Below, in pieces: positions 3,932 through 11,516 of a stretch of DNA of 25,365 nucleotides. Each line of letters starts with the position of its first letter. Positions within the stretch are counted from its first letter, which is position 1. The notes beneath the pieces are model-generated. The model was not told the origin of the DNA. It searched no databases and saw nothing but the letters and a program-made list of their open reading frames with translations. Origin of the DNA: Chloroflexota bacterium (GTDB lineage Bacteria; Chloroflexota; Anaerolineae; Caldilineales; Caldilineaceae); contig QEUY01000001.1 of the NCBI GenBank assembly GCA_003577365.1, positions 1 through 25,365 of the forward strand, read 5' to 3'. Both the position numbers and the translations under genes were made by a program.

Positions 3932-5116
3932 CTAGGCGCTTCCTTGGGAGCGGGCCAAGACGCTCTGCCCCAGGTGAACATAGAGTTGGTCGTCGTTCAT
4001 GGGGTGGTTGAGGCCGCCGCGCACATCGCGGTAATAGCGTTCCAGCGGCAGGCTGCGGCTCATGCCTGCGCCACCCACCACGCGCATACAGGCGTCGACG
4101 GCGGCCACGGCGTTGTTGGTGGCGGTATATTTGGCGACGAGGATCGATTCGGCCAGGGCGTCGCGGCAGTCGGGACGTTCATCCCACAGCGCCGCCGCCT
4201 GATAGAGCAGCACGCGCCCCTGGTGCAACAGCAGCTCGGCCTGGCCCAGCCGCCGCTGGATGCTCTCCAGTTCGGCGATCGGTTTGCCCAAAGCGGTGGG
4301 AACACGTTCATGGGCATAGGCGGCGGCGCTGCGCAGCGCCGCCGCCGCCACACCCAGATAGACGGCGCTGAGGGTGAGCGGGAACCAGGCATTGGTGCGC
4401 GGCTGGCCGCCTTTGCCGCCGGCGGGGATCAGGTTCTCGGCGGGTACAAAGACGTCGTGCAGCAGCACGTCATGGCTGCCGGTGGAGCGCATCCCCATGG
4501 CGTCCCAGGTCTCGACGATCTCGACGCCCGGCCCTACTTCGACCACAAAATTGCCGTTGGCGGCGCTGCCGTCCTCACGCGCCGCCAGGATCACCATATA
4601 GTCGAGCGCCGGGCTGAGGCTGGCGAAGTTCTTGCGCCCATTGATCAGCCAGCCCGCGGGGCGGTCACCCGTGGCGGGCACGGGTCGCGCCGTGGTTTTG
4701 GGCCTGCCGCCGCGGCTGGGGCTGCCCAGTTCCGGCTCGCTTGCCAGGGCGTTGATCAGCGCGCCGCGCTGCACCGCGGCCTCACAGACGCGGCGAAAGA
4801 GCGGCTGCGGCCAGTAGCGGCTCTCGGCGGCGCTGCCCAAGGTCTGCATATGCATGGTGACGCTGAGCGCGGTGCTGCCGTCGCCCACGGCCAGCGCCTC
4901 CACGGTGCGCAGTGTTTCTAGCAGGTTGGCGCCCCAGCCGCCCAATTCTGCGGGCACGATCAAGCTGGGCAGCCCGGCGGCGCGCACCTCGTCGATGTTT
5001 TCAAAAGGGAAGCTGCCGGCGCGATCATGCTCGGCGGCGCGGCGGCTGAAGCTGGCGGCCAGCCTGCGCGCAATGCCGATAAACCGCGCCTGCCGCTCGG
5101 TGATGGGGTAGATCAT
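3932..5116 (-). CDS. Acyl-CoA dehydrogenase-fold flavoprotein (YdbM/DszC-like, probable group D monooxygenase)
   Basis: AAEHDRAGSFPFE, INGRKNFASLS, WDAMGMRSTGSHDV, LERYYRDVR motifs. No IYEG catalytic-Glu motif; C-terminal LNHP instead. Confidence 0.85.
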   Translation of the reverse strand: MIYPITERQARFIGIARRLAASFSRRAAEHDRAGSFPFENIDEVRAAGLPSLIVPAELGGWGANLLETLRTVEALAVGDGSTALSVTMHMQTLGSAAESRYWPQPLFRRVCEAAVQRGALINALASEPELGSPSRGGRPKTTARPVPATGDRPAGWLINGRKNFASLSPALDYMVILAAREDGSAANGNFVVEVGPGVEIVETWDAMGMRSTGSHDVLLHDVFVPAENLIPAGGKGGQPRTNAWFPLTLSAVYLGVAAAALRSAAAYAHERVPTALGKPIAELESIQRRLGQAELLLHQGRVLLYQAAALWDERPDCRDALAESILVAKYTATNNAVAAVDACMRVVGGAGMSRSLPLERYYRDVRGGLNHPMNDDQLYVHLGQSVLARSQGSA

Positions 5117-5284
5117 GGGGTCAGTGTCTAGCCATTCACAAACTAGGACTTACGCAAAATCGACGTAAGATTTCGACACGAAATCGTGCACGCCACGAGT
5201 TGCACCGCAAACCGCACCTACACCATAGCCTGGCCGGGTTCGGACGCGGTTGTGGCTATGAGCCATCCCGGAGTTGGCTGCCGG

Positions 5285-5341
5285 TCCGCCCGCCCGGAGC
5301 TAACGCTGCCGGGCTAAAGAACGACGCCCCCAAGGGGGCTT
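5285..5341. repeat. REP-like two-hairpin repeat, copy 2
   Basis: TCCGCCCGCCCGGAGC...CCGGGCTAAAG..CGACGCCCCCAAGGGGGCTT is shared with 2225-2289. Confidence 0.8.
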
Positions 5342-5345
5342 TCTT

Positions 5346-5373
5346 GTAGATGCGGTTAGAAAACCGCATCTAC
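5346..5373. repeat. GTAG-type REP palindrome
   Basis: Perfect 12-bp stem GTAGATGCGGTT-agaa-AACCGCATCTAC. A lone right arm (AAACCGCACCTAC) lies at 5209-5221. Confidence 0.8.
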
Positions 5374-5377
5374 GCTT

Positions 5378-5429
5378 CTCTTTGCTCTGGCCTTTGCGTC
5401 CTTGGCGTCCTTTGCGGTGAATCCTCTGT
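5378..5429. repeat. Dispersed repeat with 9-nt internal period (CCTTTGCGT-like), copy 1
   Basis: 47/53 identical by manual alignment to 8467-8519. Confidence 0.8.
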
Positions 5430-5444
5430 GATCTTTCTGTGATC

Positions 5445-6449
5445 TTATCGGACTGCGGCCATCTCCTGCACGGTCTCGATCACGGCGCGGATATGCGCGT
5501 CGGGCGTGTTGGTCGGGATCACACAGCCCGGCCCGACCAAGATGCGCCGCCCGCCGGTCTGCTCGACGGCGTCGCGCGCCTGCCAGCGGATCTGGTCGAT
5601 CGGCCCTTCGGCAATCGTCACCTGGTCGTCGATGCCGCCGACCAGCAGCCCGTCGAAGCGGCTCTGTGCCTCCTTCAGGCTGGGCCAGGTCAAGCGGTCG
5701 TGCCAGTTGATCATCTCGACCGGATAGCTGGCGGCCAGGTCGAACATGATGTCGAAGCCGTGGACATGCAGCATATTGATCGTCTCGTCGCTGCGGATGG
5801 CGTTGAGCACTTTGATGTCATAGGTCGCGCCGAACTCGCTGTACTCCGCCTCGCTGAAGAGGCGATAGCTGGCCCCCTGCGTGGCGAAAAAGACGCCGTG
5901 CGCGCCCGCCTGCAAACAGGCCTGGGCAAAGCGGATCGTCACGTCCGCGATGATCTCCAGCCCCTGCTTGAGCAGGTCGGGGCGCAGCCGCATATCGCCG
6001 TGCACGCGGTCGCCCGCCAGCTTGATCGCCGTGGTCAGCGGGCTAAAGATGGTCTGCAGAATGGGCACGCTGCCCTTGAGTTCCTCGGCGGCCAGGCGGA
6101 TGGCCTCCACCTCCTGGCCGAGTGCGCCCTTGTGCGGGTCGAGCGTCGCCAGCTTGGGCCATTCTTCCGCCTGGGTCAGCCCCGGCTTGGTGGAGATGCG
6201 GTTGCCGCGGAAGCCGGGGTTATAGACCGTCTGCGTGCCCCAGTCATGCACGCCGTACATGCCGGTGGGCATAAATTTGACCAGGTCAAAGTCATATTGG
6301 CGCTGCCAGCGCACCATGGCGTTGGCAAGCCCTTGGGCGGTTTCATCCTCGACCGGCCAGTGCCGCCACAGGCTGACAGGCACGCGGTCGACCTCTTCGC
6401 CCTTGAGCGCGGCCCGCACGCGCTCCCAATGGTTCATGCTGGATGTCAC
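5445..6449 (-). CDS. Uroporphyrinogen decarboxylase / MtaA-CmuA superfamily protein (non-canonical, not HemE)
   Basis: ERVRAALKGEEVDRVPVSLW, QTIFSPLT, ACLQAGAHGVFFA, LHVHG, ILVGPGC. Lacks RQAGRY. GTG start with AAAGGAG 10 nt upstream; alternative ATG at 6437. Confidence 0.85.
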   Translation of the reverse strand: MTSSMNHWERVRAALKGEEVDRVPVSLWRHWPVEDETAQGLANAMVRWQRQYDFDLVKFMPTGMYGVHDWGTQTVYNPGFRGNRISTKPGLTQAEEWPKLATLDPHKGALGQEVEAIRLAAEELKGSVPILQTIFSPLTTAIKLAGDRVHGDMRLRPDLLKQGLEIIADVTIRFAQACLQAGAHGVFFATQGASYRLFSEAEYSEFGATYDIKVLNAIRSDETINMLHVHGFDIMFDLAASYPVEMINWHDRLTWPSLKEAQSRFDGLLVGGIDDQVTIAEGPIDQIRWQARDAVEQTGGRRILVGPGCVIPTNTPDAHIRAVIETVQEMAAVR

Positions 6450-6523
6450 GAGATTCCTGCTCCTTTCGGTTGCAGCGACCGGCGCTTATCAAGCGCCGGT
6501 CACTTCTTTGCTCATGGATAGAG

Positions 6524-7438
6524 CTAAATGGATTTCTGCCGCCGCGGGTCCAGCACATCGCGCAGACCGTCGCCCAGCAGATAGACCCCCAGCACCAGCA
6601 GCATGATCGCCAGGCCGGGGAAGATCGAATACCAGGGAGATTGGGACATATAGCCGCGCCCGATGCTCAACATCGACCCCCACGACGGCGCGGGCAGCGG
6701 CACGCCCAGCCCTAAAAAGCTCAACGACGATTCGAGCAGCACTGCGCCCGCAAACGAAACCGTCATCTGCACGATGATGGTCGCCAGGCTGTTGGGCAAG
6801 ATGGTGCGAAACAAGATGCGGCGGTGCGGCGCGCCGATGGCGCGCGCCGCGTCCACATAGTCTTTGTGCTTTTCGGCCAGCACATTGGCGCGCGCCAGCC
6901 GCGCAAAGATCGGGATGTTGACGATCGCCACGGCCAGCATGGCATTGCGCGCGCCCGGCCCCAACACCGCCAGGATCACAATCGCCAGCAGGATCGCCGG
7001 GAAGGCCAGCAGCGCGTCGAAGAAGCGCATGATCACCGCGTCGAACCAGCGCGACTCATAGCCGGCGACGGCCCCCAGCGTCACGCCGACCAGCGTGGCA
7101 AGCGCCACCGAGACGCCGCCCACGGCAAAGGCCACCCGCCCGCCAAAGAGCACCCGGCTCCAGATATCGCGGCCAAACTCGTCGGCCCCCATCGGATAGG
7201 CCGCCGAAGGCGCGGCAAAGCGGTCGGCGCTGTGCATCGCCACCGGGTCATAGGGGGCCAGCCAGGGCGCGGCCAGCGCCAGCGCAGCCATAGCCAGCAC
7301 CAAGATCAGCCCCGCCATTCCTGTGCGGTGGCGCACAAAGGCGCGCAGCGCGGCGCGGGTGAGGCTCTCTTGGGGTTGGCGCTCCACAGCCAGATCAGAT
7401 GTCTGGGTCTCGCGCAGGCTGAGATTGGCTGTTGACAT
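6524..7438 (-). CDS. Peptide/nickel-type ABC transporter permease (DppC/OppC-like)
   Basis: PMGADEFGRDIWSRVLFGGR, DYVDAARAIGA, ILPNSL, ESSLSFLGLGVPLPAPSWG. Confidence 0.95.
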   Translation of the reverse strand: MSTANLSLRETQTSDLAVERQPQESLTRAALRAFVRHRTGMAGLILVLAMAALALAAPWLAPYDPVAMHSADRFAAPSAAYPMGADEFGRDIWSRVLFGGRVAFAVGGVSVALATLVGVTLGAVAGYESRWFDAVIMRFFDALLAFPAILLAIVILAVLGPGARNAMLAVAIVNIPIFARLARANVLAEKHKDYVDAARAIGAPHRRILFRTILPNSLATIIVQMTVSFAGAVLLESSLSFLGLGVPLPAPSWGSMLSIGRGYMSQSPWYSIFPGLAIMLLVLGVYLLGDGLRDVLDPRRQKSI

Positions 7439-7445
7439 AGGATCG

Positions 7446-8396
7446 CTAGCCCTGATCCAAACGGATGCGCGGGTCCAACCAGCCGTAGGTCAGGTCGGTG
7501 AGCAGGTTGACCAGCAGAAAGGCCAAGACAATCAAGAGCACGTTGGCCTGCAAAAGCGCATAGTCGCGCCATTCGATGGCTTGGATCGTAAGCCGGCCCA
7601 CGCCGGGCCAGGCATAGATCGACTCGATGATGATCGCGCCGCTCAACAGGTCGCCCAGTTGCAGCCCAAAAACGGTGACGACCGGGATCAGCGAGTTGGG
7701 CAGCGCATGACGCCAGATCACCCGTTTTTCGGCCAAGCCTTTGGCGCGCGCTGTGCGCACATAGTCTTGGTTCAAGACCTCCAGCAGCGACGAACGCAGA
7801 TAGCGCACCAGGTTGGCCGCCACCCCAATGCCCAGCGTGAAGGCGGGCAGGATCACCGACTTGGCCCACAGCCCCGGCTGCTCTACCAACGAAGGCCGGC
7901 CCGAAGGCGGCAGCCAGCGCAGCTCTTGGCTGAAGAGCATGATCAAGAGGATCAACAGAAAGAAGCCGGGCATGGCAAACGACAGCGCCGAAAAGCCGGT
8001 GGTGATCACGTCGATCGTCGAACCGGGCCGCAGCGCCGCCAGAATCCCCAGGGGCAGGGCGATAAGCAGCGCGATCACCCCCGACACCAGCGCCAGTTCC
8101 ACAGTGGCCGGGACGCGCTGGGCAATCATCTTGCCCACCGGGTATTTGTTGATGTAGGAGACGCCCAGGTCGCCGCTGAGCACATTCTTGAGCCAGATGG
8201 CATACTGCGTCCACAGCGGCTGATCCAGCCCCATGCGCGCCTCGAGCGCGGCCAGTTGTTCGGGCGTGGCGTTTGGCCCGGCGACGATCTGGGCAGGGTT
8301 GCCCGGTATCAGATGGATGATCGAGAAGACGGCGACCGAGACGAGTAACATCACCGGCACCATCTGCCACAGCCGCTTCAGCGCATAGATGCCCAC
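7446..8396 (-). CDS. Peptide/nickel-type ABC transporter permease (DppB/OppB-like)
   Basis: LKRLWQMVPVMLLVS, LGLDQP-like MGLDQPL, DYVRTARAKGL, HALPNSLIP, YGWLDPRIR. GTG start with AAGGAG SD. Confidence 0.95.
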   Translation of the reverse strand: MGIYALKRLWQMVPVMLLVSVAVFSIIHLIPGNPAQIVAGPNATPEQLAALEARMGLDQPLWTQYAIWLKNVLSGDLGVSYINKYPVGKMIAQRVPATVELALVSGVIALLIALPLGILAALRPGSTIDVITTGFSALSFAMPGFFLLILLIMLFSQELRWLPPSGRPSLVEQPGLWAKSVILPAFTLGIGVAANLVRYLRSSLLEVLNQDYVRTARAKGLAEKRVIWRHALPNSLIPVVTVFGLQLGDLLSGAIIIESIYAWPGVGRLTIQAIEWRDYALLQANVLLIVLAFLLVNLLTDLTYGWLDPRIRLDQG

Positions 8397-8427
8397 AGGC
8401 TCAACTCCTTAAGAGGGGGAGTAGGGA

Positions 8428-8553
8428 GTAGGCAGATAGGCAGTGGGGGCAGAACTAGAAGGGTTACTCTCTGCTTTGGCCTTTGCGTTCTTTGCGGCCT
8501 TTGCGGTGAAATCCTCTGTCCCACTCCCTACTGCCCACTCCCTATCTGCCTAC
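8428..8553. repeat. Composite GTAG-ended inverted repeat (REPIN-like) enclosing copy 2 of the 9-nt-period repeat (8467-8519)
   Basis: Arm 8428-8447 GTAGGCAGATAGGCAGTGGG matches the reverse complement of 8534-8553 at 19/20. Arms are built from ~7-nt units (GGGAGTA/GGCAGTA-like). Confidence 0.8.
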
Positions 8554-10118
8554 CGATCCAGCCAGGTCTCGCCCAGCCAGAGCAGCCCGTCCATATCGAC
8601 GCGGAAGTCCTGAACCTCGCTCTTATAGGCATGGACGGTCTGATCCCACACGGTGGGGATGGTCCACGCCTGTTCCAGCAGGATTTCCAGCGCGCGGTGA
8701 TAGTGTTCCTTGCGCGCTGCCTGATCGTTTTCCTCGCGCGCTTGCAAGATCACCTGCTCATATTCCGGGAACCAGTCGTCCTGGTTTTCGGTGATGCCGA
8801 AGAAGTTGCGGAAGGGACGGCAGCAGGCCGCGCCTTCGAACAGACCGCTAGGGTCGACCGTGGCGTCGCCGGTGGCGTGCGAGACGATCGAGAAGTTGCT
8901 GTCGAAGAGCAGCGGCCAATATTGCGGCAGCTCGGTGGGTACTAGCTCCACCTGCACGCCGATGGCCGCCAACTGCTGTTGGAAGACCTGGGCCTGGTCC
9001 AGGTGGGGGCCGCCCGTGCCGCGGATCAACATCTGCACCGAGAAGCCATCCGGGTAGCCGGCCTCGGCCAGCAGCGCCTTGGCCTTTTCGGGGTCATAGG
9101 TGTAGTAGTCTTCCAGGTCCGGCGCATAGGCCCAAGAGGTCTTGGGATAGGGTACCAAGAGCGGCGTGGCTTGGCCGTGGAAGGCGGTCTCGGAGATCTC
9201 CTCGCGGTTGATCGCATATTGGAAGGCCTGGCGCACCTTGACGTTGTCAAAGGGCGGCGCGTTGACATTCATAATGAAGGCATAGAAGGTGAAGCCTGCC
9301 GGCGCCTCGCCGACGACCATGCCCTCTTCCTGGGCCAGCCCTGCCTTTTCACTCAGCGGAACGCCCACCAAGGCGTCGATGCTGCCGGACTTCAGATTCA
9401 CCAAGCGCGCCTGCTCGTCGGGGATCGGCTTGACGACGATCTTGTCGAGATAGGGCAGCCCCTCGCGCCAGTAGTCCTCAAAGCGCTCGGCGGTCATGCT
9501 GTCGCCGGGGATCCATTCGATGAATTTGAAGGGGCCGGTTCCCACAGGCACGGTGTCAATCGTCTCGGCGGCCTCCTGCGGGAAGATATAGAGGCGCGCG
9601 ATGCCGTCGAGCTGCGAAGCCGTGTGCTCGCTGTAGTTGATCTTGACCGTGTAGTCGTCGATCTTCTCAGCGCCGGTGCAGGTCTGGAAGCGGTCGCTCA
9701 GGTGATGGCCGATCTCCGTATTGCGCGCATAGTCGACCGACCAGACCACGTCGTCGGCGGTCAGCTCGCGCCCGTTGTGGAACTTGATCCCTTGGCGCAG
9801 ATGGAGCGTGACCGATAGCCCATCCTCGCCTTCTTCCCAAGATTCGGCCAGCCAGGGTTCAAAGTCGCCGGCGTCGCTGATACGGATCGGCGCTTCGAAA
9901 AAGACCGGCTTGATCTGGGCGTTGGTCACGTCATAATAAGGGTGGAAGGTGACGAAGTCGTCACCCAACGACAGCGTAAGCGTGCCTCCCGCCTTGGGGC
10001 CGGCAGGGGCGGCGGCTTCGCCTGCGGCAGGAGCGGCGGGCTGGGCCGCAGGGGCGCAGGCCGCCAACAGCAGCACAGCCAACAGCAACAGAGTCGTCAA
10101 CGTCGTGCGTTTTTGCAT
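8550..10118 (-). CDS. ABC transporter substrate-binding lipoprotein, family 5 (DppA/OppA/NikA-like)
   Basis: Lipobox LAAC; PWLAESWE, LRQGIKFHNGRELTADDVVWS, PVGTGPFKF, FDNVKVRQA. GAGGAG SD. Confidence 0.95.
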   Translation of the reverse strand: MQKRTTLTTLLLLAVLLLAACAPAAQPAAPAAGEAAAPAGPKAGGTLTLSLGDDFVTFHPYYDVTNAQIKPVFFEAPIRISDAGDFEPWLAESWEEGEDGLSVTLHLRQGIKFHNGRELTADDVVWSVDYARNTEIGHHLSDRFQTCTGAEKIDDYTVKINYSEHTASQLDGIARLYIFPQEAAETIDTVPVGTGPFKFIEWIPGDSMTAERFEDYWREGLPYLDKIVVKPIPDEQARLVNLKSGSIDALVGVPLSEKAGLAQEEGMVVGEAPAGFTFYAFIMNVNAPPFDNVKVRQAFQYAINREEISETAFHGQATPLLVPYPKTSWAYAPDLEDYYTYDPEKAKALLAEAGYPDGFSVQMLIRGTGGPHLDQAQVFQQQLAAIGVQVELVPTELPQYWPLLFDSNFSIVSHATGDATVDPSGLFEGAACCRPFRNFFGITENQDDWFPEYEQVILQAREENDQAARKEHYHRALEILLEQAWTIPTVWDQTVHAYKSEVQDFRVDMDGLLWLGETWLDR

Positions 10119-10140
10119 ACCATTCTCCTCATGGATAGTC

Positions 10141-10168
10141 TCTGCGTGACAGTTTCTGCGTGACAGTT
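10141..10168. repeat. Perfect 14-bp tandem duplication TCTGCGTGACAGTT x2
   Basis: Read directly. A partial third copy TGACAGTTC lies at 10369-10377. Confidence 0.85.
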
Positions 10169-10391
10169 CCTAAGCTCTATGTGAGTCCCTGCCGGATACC
10201 ATCGCTTACACTTGGGTCTGCGCAGGGCGACGCCCACCGCACGGATCTCATGACCGGGGGACAGGTTGCGGAACAGGCCGATCTCAAAACGCTGGACAAC
10301 CGGCGGGGGCCGGTCGATGCCCCGCCCGCACACGCGTTTTTACGATGGCTTGTTCCCACTGGTTCGGATGACAGTTCTGATGGCGCGCCCT

Positions 10392-10420
10392 ATTCTAACC
10401 AAAGACGCGCACTCCAACAA
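10392..10420 (-). promoter_or_regulatory. Possible proximal sigma70 promoter for the ABC operon
   Basis: TTGTTG-17 nt-TAGAAT on the minus strand. Confidence 0.4.
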
Positions 10421-10453
10421 ACGCTTACAACGGTGCGAGCAGGGCGCGGCGAC

Positions 10454-10691
10454 GGCCCATTCACTCAACCTGTTTGGCAGTGGTTTGGCTAGACCGGCTC
10501 GACAAAACCGGTTCAGCAAACCAGATACGGCCTCCGGCGCAGGATGCATCGCCGCGCAAAGCATGTTAGACTTCCATGCAGATGCCGGCGTAGCGATGCA
10601 GACCCGCACAGCCGGCAGCCCTGCGGCCCAGCATGGAGGGTCGGCGGCTGGGAGCCGATGACCGGCACACAGCAGGTTGAGTTAACGGGCC
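10454..10691 (-). ncRNA. Putative structured cis-regulatory RNA domain (unassigned family)
   Basis: Closing helix 10673-10691 with 10454-10472 (18 of 19 paired including one G-U on the minus strand). Nested helices at 10545-10552/10593-10600, 10561-10565/10575-10579 and 10481-10523. Confidence 0.5.
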
Positions 10692-10849
10692 TTCGTACAG
10701 GGGCAGGTACAGGGGCAGGTACAACAACCGGCGAGGTAATAAGCAGGGGCCAGGCAGAGGGCAGCACGGTGGGAGGTATGACGGGGCAGAGACACGGCGC
10801 GCGACAGAGCTTCGGGAGGCGCTGCCGGCGCAAGAGCTAGATGCTGCAT
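10682..10849 (-). CDS. 55-aa Cys-rich small ORF, candidate leader peptide
   Basis: GAGGA-6 nt-ATG. Translates to MQHLALAPAAPPEALSRAVSLPRHTSHRAALCLAPAYYLAGCCTCPCTCPCTKAR*. It is below the ORF-track size cutoff and its codon usage is atypical for the genome. Confidence 0.5.
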   Translation of the reverse strand: MQHLALAPAAPPEALSRAVSLPRHTSHRAALCLAPAYYLAGCCTCPCTCPCTKAR

Positions 10850-10956
10850 GGGGTTTCCTCGCTGGTTGGTACGATCACGATACGAGCAAAATCATGATAC
10901 GATCACAGACGAACATCCATACACGGATATCCGCCGGCGCAGCCGCCGGCTAGGGC

Positions 10957-10985
10957 AGTATACGAGCCGCCCCGCTTCCTGTCAA
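10957..10985 (-). promoter_or_regulatory. Near-consensus sigma70 promoter pointing toward the small ORF and ABC operon
   Basis: TTGACA (10980-10985), 17-nt spacer, TATACT (10957-10962). Predicted start site ~10950. Confidence 0.8.
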
Positions 10986-11039
10986 AGATGACCGATCTAC
11001 GAGCGTGTTTTTACAAGAACGTTTTTGCGAGAGTGCGCT

Positions 11040-11516
11040 ATGGACAACCCAATTGACAGCCGGCACAGTGACCAACACAGTGACCAACACGGTGACCGGC
11101 GTGATGAGATGAAGATCCGGGTCCTGGTGGCAAAGCCAGGGCTAGACGGCCATGACCGCGGCGCCAAGGTGGTGGCGCGCGCCCTGCGCGATGCCGGGTT
11201 CGAGGTGATCTACACCGGCATCCGCCAGACGCCGCAGATGATCGCCGAGGCCGCCCTGCAAGAGGATGTCGACGTGGTGGGGCTGAGCATCCTCAGCGGC
11301 GCGCATCTGACGCTCTGCCCCAAGGTGGTCGATCTGCTGCGCGCCCAGGGCCAGGGGCAGGTCGTCGTGGTGGTCGGCGGGATCGTGCCCGACGAGGATA
11401 TCCCCGCGCTGCAGGCGGCGGGCATCCGCGCCGTCTTTGGACCGGGGACCTCCACCCAAGAGATCGCCAGTTACATCCGCCAGGCCGTGGCCCAGGCGCA
11501 TCCGATGGACAACTAA
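11040..11516 (+). CDS. Cobalamin-binding domain protein (methylmalonyl-CoA mutase-type C-terminal/small subunit)
   Basis: [50 protein letters not shown]. Alternative start at ATG 11109. Confidence 0.92.

Follow-up and report, generated by a model that had tools for sequence, protein, structure and literature searches.

What does a short, unannotated open reading frame (ORF) whose last codons are crowded with cysteine do ahead of an importer operon? The question is raised by a 25,365-nt stretch of DNA (positions 1 to 25,365 of contig QEUY01000001.1, in the following the window) from a metagenome-assembled genome (MAG) of an uncultured member of the Caldilineaceae (Chloroflexota; 64.7% GC, 89.5% complete, 7.8% contamination; G000 in the following). 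In a divergent intergenic region of ∼1 kb, the window contains a 55-codon ORF with an ATG start (10682..10849), which lies on the (−) strand, as do all features of the leader and of the operon behind it described below. As its first choice, an initial annotation made from the sequence of the window had proposed a leader peptide that senses cysteine. Comparative tests support this choice: the Shine-Dalgarno (SD) sequence, the ATG, and the Cys tract adjacent to the stop codon are conserved, while the rest of the ORF drifts like noncoding DNA. Judged by sequence comparison, this small ORF (sORF), together with its promoter, SD, and Cys tract, is real, conserved, and regulatory, and it probably constitutes a translated, cis-acting leader peptide gene sensing the supply of charged tRNA-Cys.

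Every point of the initial description proved correct. Translation confirmed the frame, the product of which ends in GCCTCPCTCPCTKAR. A GAGGA SD is located at 10856-10860, 6 nt ahead of the ATG, and the consensus promoter postulated ∼100 nt upstream was found at 10957..10985 (TTGACA-N17-TATACT; 11 of 12 matches), its −10 hexamer ending 107 nt before the ATG. Two promoter-like sites are present in the region, where 0.3 are expected from shuffled sequences. The leader transcript would start at ∼10950, which places its 5′-untranslated region (5′-UTR), including the SD, at 10850..10950. The ORF holds seven Cys codons (residues 32, 42, 43, 45, 47, 49, and 51; four of them UGU), six of which fall within ten codons (residues 42-51; 10697..10726), a stretch that ends four codons before the stop and is the proposed site of ribosome stalling. 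Part of the Cys run is supplied by an overlapping 12-bp tandem repeat, GTACAGGGGCAG (10695-10723; period 12, 2.4 copies, 100% matches), just as had been noted initially. The body of the ORF, the Cys tract, and the 60 nt past the stop form a C-rich, G-poor stretch (10622..10802; 77 C versus 42 G between positions −120 and +60 relative to the stop), in agreement with the C/U-rich coding strand described before; it is a candidate Rho loading site or anti-SD sequence. With respect to this C/G composition, the locus ranks in the top 0.4% of all 180-nt segments of the MAG.

The first gene behind the leader ORF encodes a family-5 solute-binding lipoprotein (SBP; 8550..10118; Pfam SBP_bac_5, E 1e-98), proposed to be the first regulated gene and separated from the ORF by an untranslated spacer of 563 nt (10119..10681). 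All eight other genomes of the genus contain an orthologue of the SBP, and the search for Cys-rich sORFs upstream of it, which the initial annotation had suggested, returned a Cys-tailed ORF on the same strand in six of the nine genus genomes, G000 included. In the other five (G001, G003, G004, G005, and G007), the ORF comprises 48-62 codons and is in each case equipped with an SD and with the same perfect promoter hexamers. At the SBP loci, the Cys tract lies 0-6 codons before the stop; the tails vary (CCTPCCTSCCTAN, CCCPCCASCCPAGCCPDC, CCTSNCCTPCCTSC, and PCTCPCI among them), and the N-termini are unrelated.

Alignment with the relatives G004 and G001, in both of which the SD/ATG block CAACYAGCGAGGA plus ATG is kept, revealed where the constraint lies. 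Between G000 and G004, the SBPs of which are 96% identical, identity amounts to 86.7% over codons 1-40 and 86.9% over the 5′-UTR, but to 93.8% over the Cys tract and 100% over the promoter, and the two ORFs differ by nine non-synonymous and three synonymous codons. Compared with G001, the Cys tract is 75% and the ORF body 57% identical, and the single gap inside the ORF is 3 nt long, which keeps the frame. From this pattern it follows that the existence of the ORF, its start, and its Cys tract are maintained, whereas its amino acid sequence is not; selection on these elements would presumably account for it. The 5′-UTR also contains, at 10870-10930, direct repeats of CTCGTATCGTGATCG-like units, of which G004 has one extra copy and G001 none. 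The idea that the copy number of the 12-bp repeat within the Cys tract tunes the sensitivity of the device was not borne out, as the codon count in G004 is equal and contigs from two RNA sequencing runs carry no indel at this place.

The device is present at other loci as well. The whole MAG was scanned for Cys-tailed frames outside long ORFs, which resulted in three Cys-tailed ORFs with promoter, SD, and ATG, situated upstream of the SBP gene, of a gene for a rhodanese/3-mercaptopyruvate sulfurtransferase (3-MST), and of an OsmC-like gene, which is itself followed by an aldo-keto reductase gene. The two further ORFs are unannotated, too (L018, contig C1026, 4812-4970, (−) strand, 52 codons, before the rhodanese/3-MST gene; L017, contig C830, 125-280, (+) strand, 51 codons, before the OsmC-like gene). 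Scanning G000 at a lower threshold did not add any credible Cys-tailed ORF to these three, and no homology was found between the three leaders beyond promoter, SD, and Cys tract. The rhodanese-linked ORF was present at 16 of the 30 orthologous loci sampled in the Caldilineaceae, representing nine genera, and was missing from all 26 loci taken from 14 further families of the class, which double as a control for chance; it was also absent from three genomes of one further Caldilineaceae genus. The OsmC-linked ORF was absent from the nine other genomes containing the OsmC orthologue, and is either specific to G000 or resides on a contaminant contig (the MAG contamination being 7.8%).

This distribution bears on the simplest rival explanation, that is, a chance ORF that a tandem repeat produced in intergenic DNA of high GC content, which the initial annotation had ranked last. 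Part of the Cys run does stem from the 12-bp repeat, and Cys-rich frames are common in a genome of 65% GC: in G000, 432 segments running from stop to stop reach a density of 5 or more Cys per 15 residues, and most of them are alternative frames of genes rich in CTG. However, the orthologous Cys-tailed ORFs occur in six genomes without the same repeat and in otherwise divergent sequence, so that the equivalent position in relatives does hold a Cys-rich ORF, and two further loci in G000 plus 16 rhodanese-linked loci in the family stand against 0 of 26 in the outgroup. Comparative conservation and the outgroup control together exclude chance, to which we assign a negligible probability.

Across 23 loci assembled under the criterion of at least 5 Cys in 15 residues, the architecture is uniform. 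Perfect promoter hexamers precede 22 of the Cys-tailed ORFs, and the 23rd is truncated by the end of its contig. As the motif TTGACA-N17/18-TATA(A/C)T occurs in 42 exact copies in G000, e.g., before rpmH, efp, and lexA-like genes, these hexamers represent the housekeeping consensus of this Chloroflexota lineage; none of the 42 perfect copies was seen to be followed by a leader peptide for another amino acid. Between 5 and 10 Cys codons fall within the last 25 codons of each sORF. Taken together, 116 of the Cys codons are UGU and 45 are UGC (72% UGU), compared with 31% UGU in the long ORFs of G000; this preference opposes the C-richness of the surrounding RNA and is, therefore, no by-product of composition. 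From −120 to +60 around the stop, C exceeds G at all 23 loci (C/G up to 2.1). At the loci other than that in the window, the spacer between the stop of the leader ORF and the next gene measures 214-592 nt.

Whether the peptide itself, rather than its translation, could be what matters can be judged from the same data. A functional, Cys-rich small protein working together with the products of the neighboring genes, either as a thiol/persulfide carrier or as a metallothionein-like metal buffer, would explain why the ORF is conserved, led by an SD, and driven by a strong promoter; the neighbors all belong to thiol chemistry (rhodanese, OsmC-like protein, GsiB-like binding protein), and the recurrent Cys-Thr and Cys-Pro patterns (CCT, CPC) show more order than Cys codons alone require. 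Such a protein is nevertheless unlikely: codons 1-40 change as fast as the UTR beside them, non-synonymous codon differences outnumbering synonymous ones 9:3; the peptides of the three G000 loci are unrelated outside the tract; and number and spacing of the Cys residues vary freely between orthologues. Nor does the leader peptide contain a signal peptide, belong to a Pfam family, or have a match in a database of 5.8 billion protein sequences. The UGU preference and the C>G skew, moreover, are properties at the nucleotide level which a protein role leaves unexplained. The metallothionein-like peptide considered by the initial annotation is likewise unsupported, given a variable Cys pattern and no purifying selection on the peptide.

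The C-terminal cores rich in Cys, Thr, and Pro are also reminiscent of those of thiopeptides, linear azoles, and methanobactin, which would make the ORF the precursor of a ribosomally synthesized and post-translationally modified peptide (RiPP; azole-, thioamide-, or methanobactin-like), the product of which is handled by the adjacent family-5 SBP and its ABC system. Methanobactin uptake indeed employs a family-5 binding protein. Yet among the Pfam-scanned ORFs of the 25-kb window, genes for YcaO, radical SAM, MNIO/DUF692, LanM, or peptidases are absent, as the initial annotation had stated for radical SAM, YcaO, and LanM, and none lies beside the two paralogous loci, so no maturase is common to the three. 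The leader region contains no conserved recognition motif, its N-terminal 40 codons drifting within and being unrelated between loci, and the operon encodes an importer without an exporter. With no maturase to support it, a RiPP precursor is very improbable.

Near-identical sequence is present in four public metatranscriptomes, and assembled contigs of two RNA runs span the leader ORF (10561-10919 and 10581-10937). The ends of these contigs, 70-88 nt upstream of the ATG, fall 13-31 nt short of the predicted transcription start. The spacer is bridged in pieces, as far as into the SBP gene, by contigs from the RNA runs (9048-10508, 10330-10666, and 10125-10523), and the depth is zero at 10964-11074 in all four runs, between the two divergent transcription units. 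Strain variants in these runs affect three non-synonymous sites and one synonymous site of the leader ORF, but none in the Cys tract, and the repeat shows no indel. Inside the SBP gene, short contigs of high depth stack at 9045-9077, probably a segment common to other organisms.

The long, untranslated part of the leader could in principle carry the regulatory function by itself, as a riboswitch or a protein-binding leader in which the open frame is incidental or of minor importance. The leader is indeed long (∼830 nt) and contains a domain of ∼200 nt closed by a 19-nt helix, the 5′ arm of which (10673..10691) includes the UAA stop codon of the ORF and pairs with a 3′ arm at 10454..10472 (17 Watson-Crick pairs, one G-U pair, and one mismatch; duplex z = −2.75 versus shuffled arms). 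The helix is present in the predicted minimum free energy (MFE) folds of both G000 and G004, between which the segment 10282-10581 is 91-96% identical, that is, above the identity of the ORF body. In addition, a conserved block (10534..10572; AGUCUAYCAYGCUU followed by a hairpin whose loop begins with AUGCA) is kept in five of the six SBP leaders and occurs only once in the whole of G000; it is absent from the rhodanese and OsmC leaders, and its stem sequences differ between genomes. However, G001 keeps the ORF without the ∼200-nt domain, the helix arm pairing locally there, in a hairpin that contains two compensatory changes, and SD, ATG, frame (the indel in G001 being 3 nt), and stop-adjacent Cys tract are kept at 23 loci in RNAs that are otherwise unalignable. 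Over the whole window, no Rfam family reached its gathering threshold, and a search of the leader with E up to 10 yielded nothing but noise. That a structured RNA alone accounts for the locus is, thus weighed, quite unlikely, although a second, ligand-sensing RNA element alongside the leader ORF is possible, and the conserved block may be a second, locus-specific regulatory input. The block was also considered as a second coding start and rejected: it starts with AUG in most genomes (ML..MHP), but the corresponding triplet is ACG in G003, and the frame is lost in G004.

Pairing around the stop codon is not confined to the window locus. In G003 and G007, the stop codon lies in or beside a predicted helix, and the mean pairing probability across the 23 loci peaks 0-20 nt past the stop. 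Duplexes between the stop region and more distant downstream sequence were weak when all 23 loci were tested (mean z of only −0.9, with four loci below −2), for which reason the long-range form of the helix is regarded as specific to some loci. One weak terminator-like site is present at the window locus, no more than in shuffled sequences, and the MFE structures fold it differently. A GC-rich hairpin at ∼10305-10335 was rejected as a terminator because its pairing is lost without compensation in G004 and in the strains of the RNA runs. The SD of the next gene is predicted to pair with the leader ORF at 8 of 18 loci (at the window locus with the ORF body, 0.40), and 12 of the 16 rhodanese leaders, but none of the six SBP leaders, carry anti-SD-like CCUCC/CUCCU motifs in their tract.

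Behind the SBP gene, two ABC permease genes follow (7446-8396 and 6524-7438; Pfam BPD_transp_1 and OppC_N), then a gene for a member of the URO-D superfamily, a putative MtaA/CmuA-like thiol methyltransferase (5445..6449; below curated cut-offs), and, after a gap, a gene for a flavoprotein with the fold of acyl-CoA dehydrogenases (ACAD; 3932..5116; Pfam), which is possibly the last gene of the importer unit. This unit (3932-8396) lacks an ABC ATPase gene, combining SBP and two permeases with the MtaA/CmuA-like URO-D-fold protein and the ACAD-fold flavoprotein. The best NCBIfam match of the SBP is GsiB (glutathione; 189 bits, below its cut-off), and its closest solved relatives include YliB/GsiB, DppA, and HbpA; such relatives bind glutathione or dipeptides. 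Among the NCBIfam matches of the flavoprotein, all of them below cut-off, are 3-sulfinopropanoyl-CoA desulfinase, SfnB, and DszC. Three strains of the RNA runs carry a 14-nt insertion behind position 8519, within the 153 nt (8397-8549) that separate the SBP gene from the first permease gene. A 14-bp tandem repeat, AGTTTCTGCGTGAC (10137-10168; 2.3 copies), lies next to the ribosome-binding site (RBS) of the SBP gene, 19-50 nt ahead of the start codon; present as a single copy in G004, it could be an operator or merely a strain-variable repeat. On the opposite strand, the genes for a B12-binding subunit of the methylmalonyl-CoA mutase type (ATG at 11109) and for MeaB start, the former being immediately preceded by another 12-bp tandem repeat, CACAGTGACCAA (11064-11097; 2.8 copies), which is absent in G004.

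How might the leader ORF act on the operon? Translation, stalling, the direction of regulation, and a dependence on Rho are what we infer from the features above, and they would be connected as follows. From the strong constitutive promoter, a leader RNA of ∼830 nt would be made; ribosomes would initiate at the AUG behind the SD and traverse ∼40 C-rich, G-poor codons, the amino acid sequence of which would be irrelevant, before meeting six Cys codons, mostly wobble-read UGU, just ahead of the stop. With Cys-tRNA plentiful, they would finish and leave, so that the pyrimidine-rich RNA and the stop-codon helix become free and the downstream operon is held down. With Cys-tRNA scarce, a ribosome would stall on the tract and others would queue behind it, covering the pyrimidine-rich stretch and opening the stop-codon helix, and repression of the importer operon (GsiB/Dpp-like SBP, two permeases, MtaA-like enzyme) would be relieved. 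Most likely, repression is exerted by Rho, which would terminate transcription prematurely within the 563-nt spacer, as in the tna operon; alternatively, the downstream SD would be sequestered over a long distance. As to the likeness to a Rho loading site that the initial annotation had drawn, it holds for the composition (C>G at 23 of 23 loci) and is accompanied by the long spacers and a rho gene in G000 (Rho_RNA_bind protein, 116 bits), whereas loading itself stays a candidate function. A gene for tRNA-Cys was not found in G000, which is uninformative at a completeness of 89.5%.

Several observations weigh against a cysteine-sensing leader peptide or against parts of its proposed mechanism. 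In three genomes of the genus, as well as in two related genera, no Cys ORF accompanies the SBP gene. Alignments of 6 SBP and 16 rhodanese leaders contained neither a conserved terminator/antiterminator pair nor a U-tract terminator. Termination by Rho, in turn, demands extra assumptions, because a Rho utilization site within a well-translated ORF would also be shielded when cysteine is plentiful. As regards the alternative, masking the tract raised the predicted accessibility of the downstream SD only slightly (from a mean of 0.39 to 0.47 at 14 loci, and from 0.35 to 0.42 at the window locus), and the predicted pairing partner of this SD is inconsistent between loci. Transcription is documented by low-depth, assembled contigs, which lack a DNA control for this part of the window. 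Finally, every family match of the SBP, the MtaA-like, and the ACAD-like protein stays below the curated cut-offs.

A switch of this kind has a precedent. In Mycobacterium smegmatis, leaderless polycysteine sORFs were proven to act as attenuators (the "Cys ribulon"); the model operon includes a thiosulfate sulfurtransferase, and several loci constitute a regulon (Canestrari et al, 2020; bioRxiv 10.1101/834739; Mol Microbiol 114:93). The Caldilineaceae ORFs resemble the mycobacterial ones in being short and unannotated, in ending with a tract of Cys codons that is the sole conserved part of the peptide, in having a constitutive promoter, in occurring at several loci per genome (in G000 three, with SBP, rhodanese, and OsmC-like neighbors), and in including an operon with a thiosulfate sulfurtransferase/rhodanese. 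In contrast to the mycobacterial ORFs, they are not leaderless but possess a 5′-UTR of ∼40-160 nt and an SD, they are longer (32-62 codons), and they lie 214-592 nt from the controlled gene instead of adjoining its SD. They are furthermore embedded in a C-rich, G-poor stretch, are biased toward UGU, and belong to another phylum without sequence homology, and their mechanism is a proposed one. In the mycobacterial class, the Cys tract pairs with the RBS of the next gene, which a stalled ribosome sets free; here, the predicted effect of this kind is small. As the outgroup families lack such ORFs, the origin of the Caldilineaceae set was probably independent of the mycobacteria.

Two further sets of candidates are known from the literature. 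Cys leader peptides were proposed before cys/cbs operons of Mycobacterium, Propionibacterium, and Bifidobacterium (Seliverstov et al, 2005; PMC1262725). These share with the ORFs described here the runs of Cys codons near the stop and the lack of a conserved terminator hairpin, and those authors also proposed Rho-dependent, tna-like attenuation; they precede, however, cysteine biosynthesis genes of Actinobacteria, whereas the targets in the Caldilineaceae are an importer, a rhodanese, and an OsmC-like protein. The uORFC-8-2 motif upstream of cysS in Rhodobacterales (Brewer et al, 2021; PMC8632094) is likewise a candidate ribosome-mediated attenuator with tandem Cys codons in a short upstream ORF. 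It differs in having two Cys codons (mostly UGC) within a stem plus an intrinsic terminator with a U run, whereas the Caldilineaceae ORFs contain 5-10 Cys codons, UGU prevailing, lack a U-tract terminator, and are followed by a long spacer. No report of Cys leader ORFs in Chloroflexota was found in the published literature.

With respect to the repressive step, a close analogue is known from a different system. In the tnaC-tnaA operon of E. coli, attenuation is Rho-dependent, and free tryptophan acts on nascent TnaC, causing a stall at the stop codon. In both cases a long untranslated spacer lies behind the leader peptide gene, and a ribosome halted where the leader ORF ends would hide a C-rich region, adjacent to the stop, on which Rho loads; C-rich, G-poor RNA at the end of the leader ORF, a long spacer, and a rho gene are all present in G000. 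Unlike the proposed switch, TnaC stalls in response to free tryptophan and not to a shortage of charged tRNA, and the role of Rho here is that of a candidate. With amino acid-sensing leaders in general, the Caldilineaceae ORFs share a translation start of their own in the 5′ leader of an operon on the same strand, and a Cys run that is kept while the peptide drifts. A leader switch operating through Cys codons is thus of a known kind, of which the Caldilineaceae set is a further case, possibly with a distinctive mechanism. More tentatively, and with considerable doubt, we suggest that the Caldilineaceae evolved a cysteine ribulon of their own, independent of that of mycobacteria, which would sense queues of ribosomes: repression would be exerted by the RNA of the ORF body itself, as a Rho loading site and/or an anti-SD, and would cease only when ribosomes pile up behind a stall in the UGU-rich, C-terminal tract. 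Such queue sensing would explain the length of the ORFs (2-4 times that of classical leaders), the tract being always C-terminal, and the long spacer.

To our knowledge, cysteine is among the few amino acids that were long believed to lack control by leader peptides, and such control has been proven in mycobacteria only. That a distant phylum has a multi-locus set as well, which probably originated independently and again includes a rhodanese operon, suggests that ribosome-based sensing of cysteine is a recurrent solution. The set adds at least 23 unannotated sORFs, presumably translated, to the genomes of the Caldilineaceae, and it provides a natural system in which to ask if leader ORFs can accommodate Rho loading sites. 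For the organisms themselves, bacteria of sludge and bioreactors, it provides a putative cue, cysteine shortage, for an otherwise uncharacterized operon of importer, MtaA-like enzyme, and flavoprotein.

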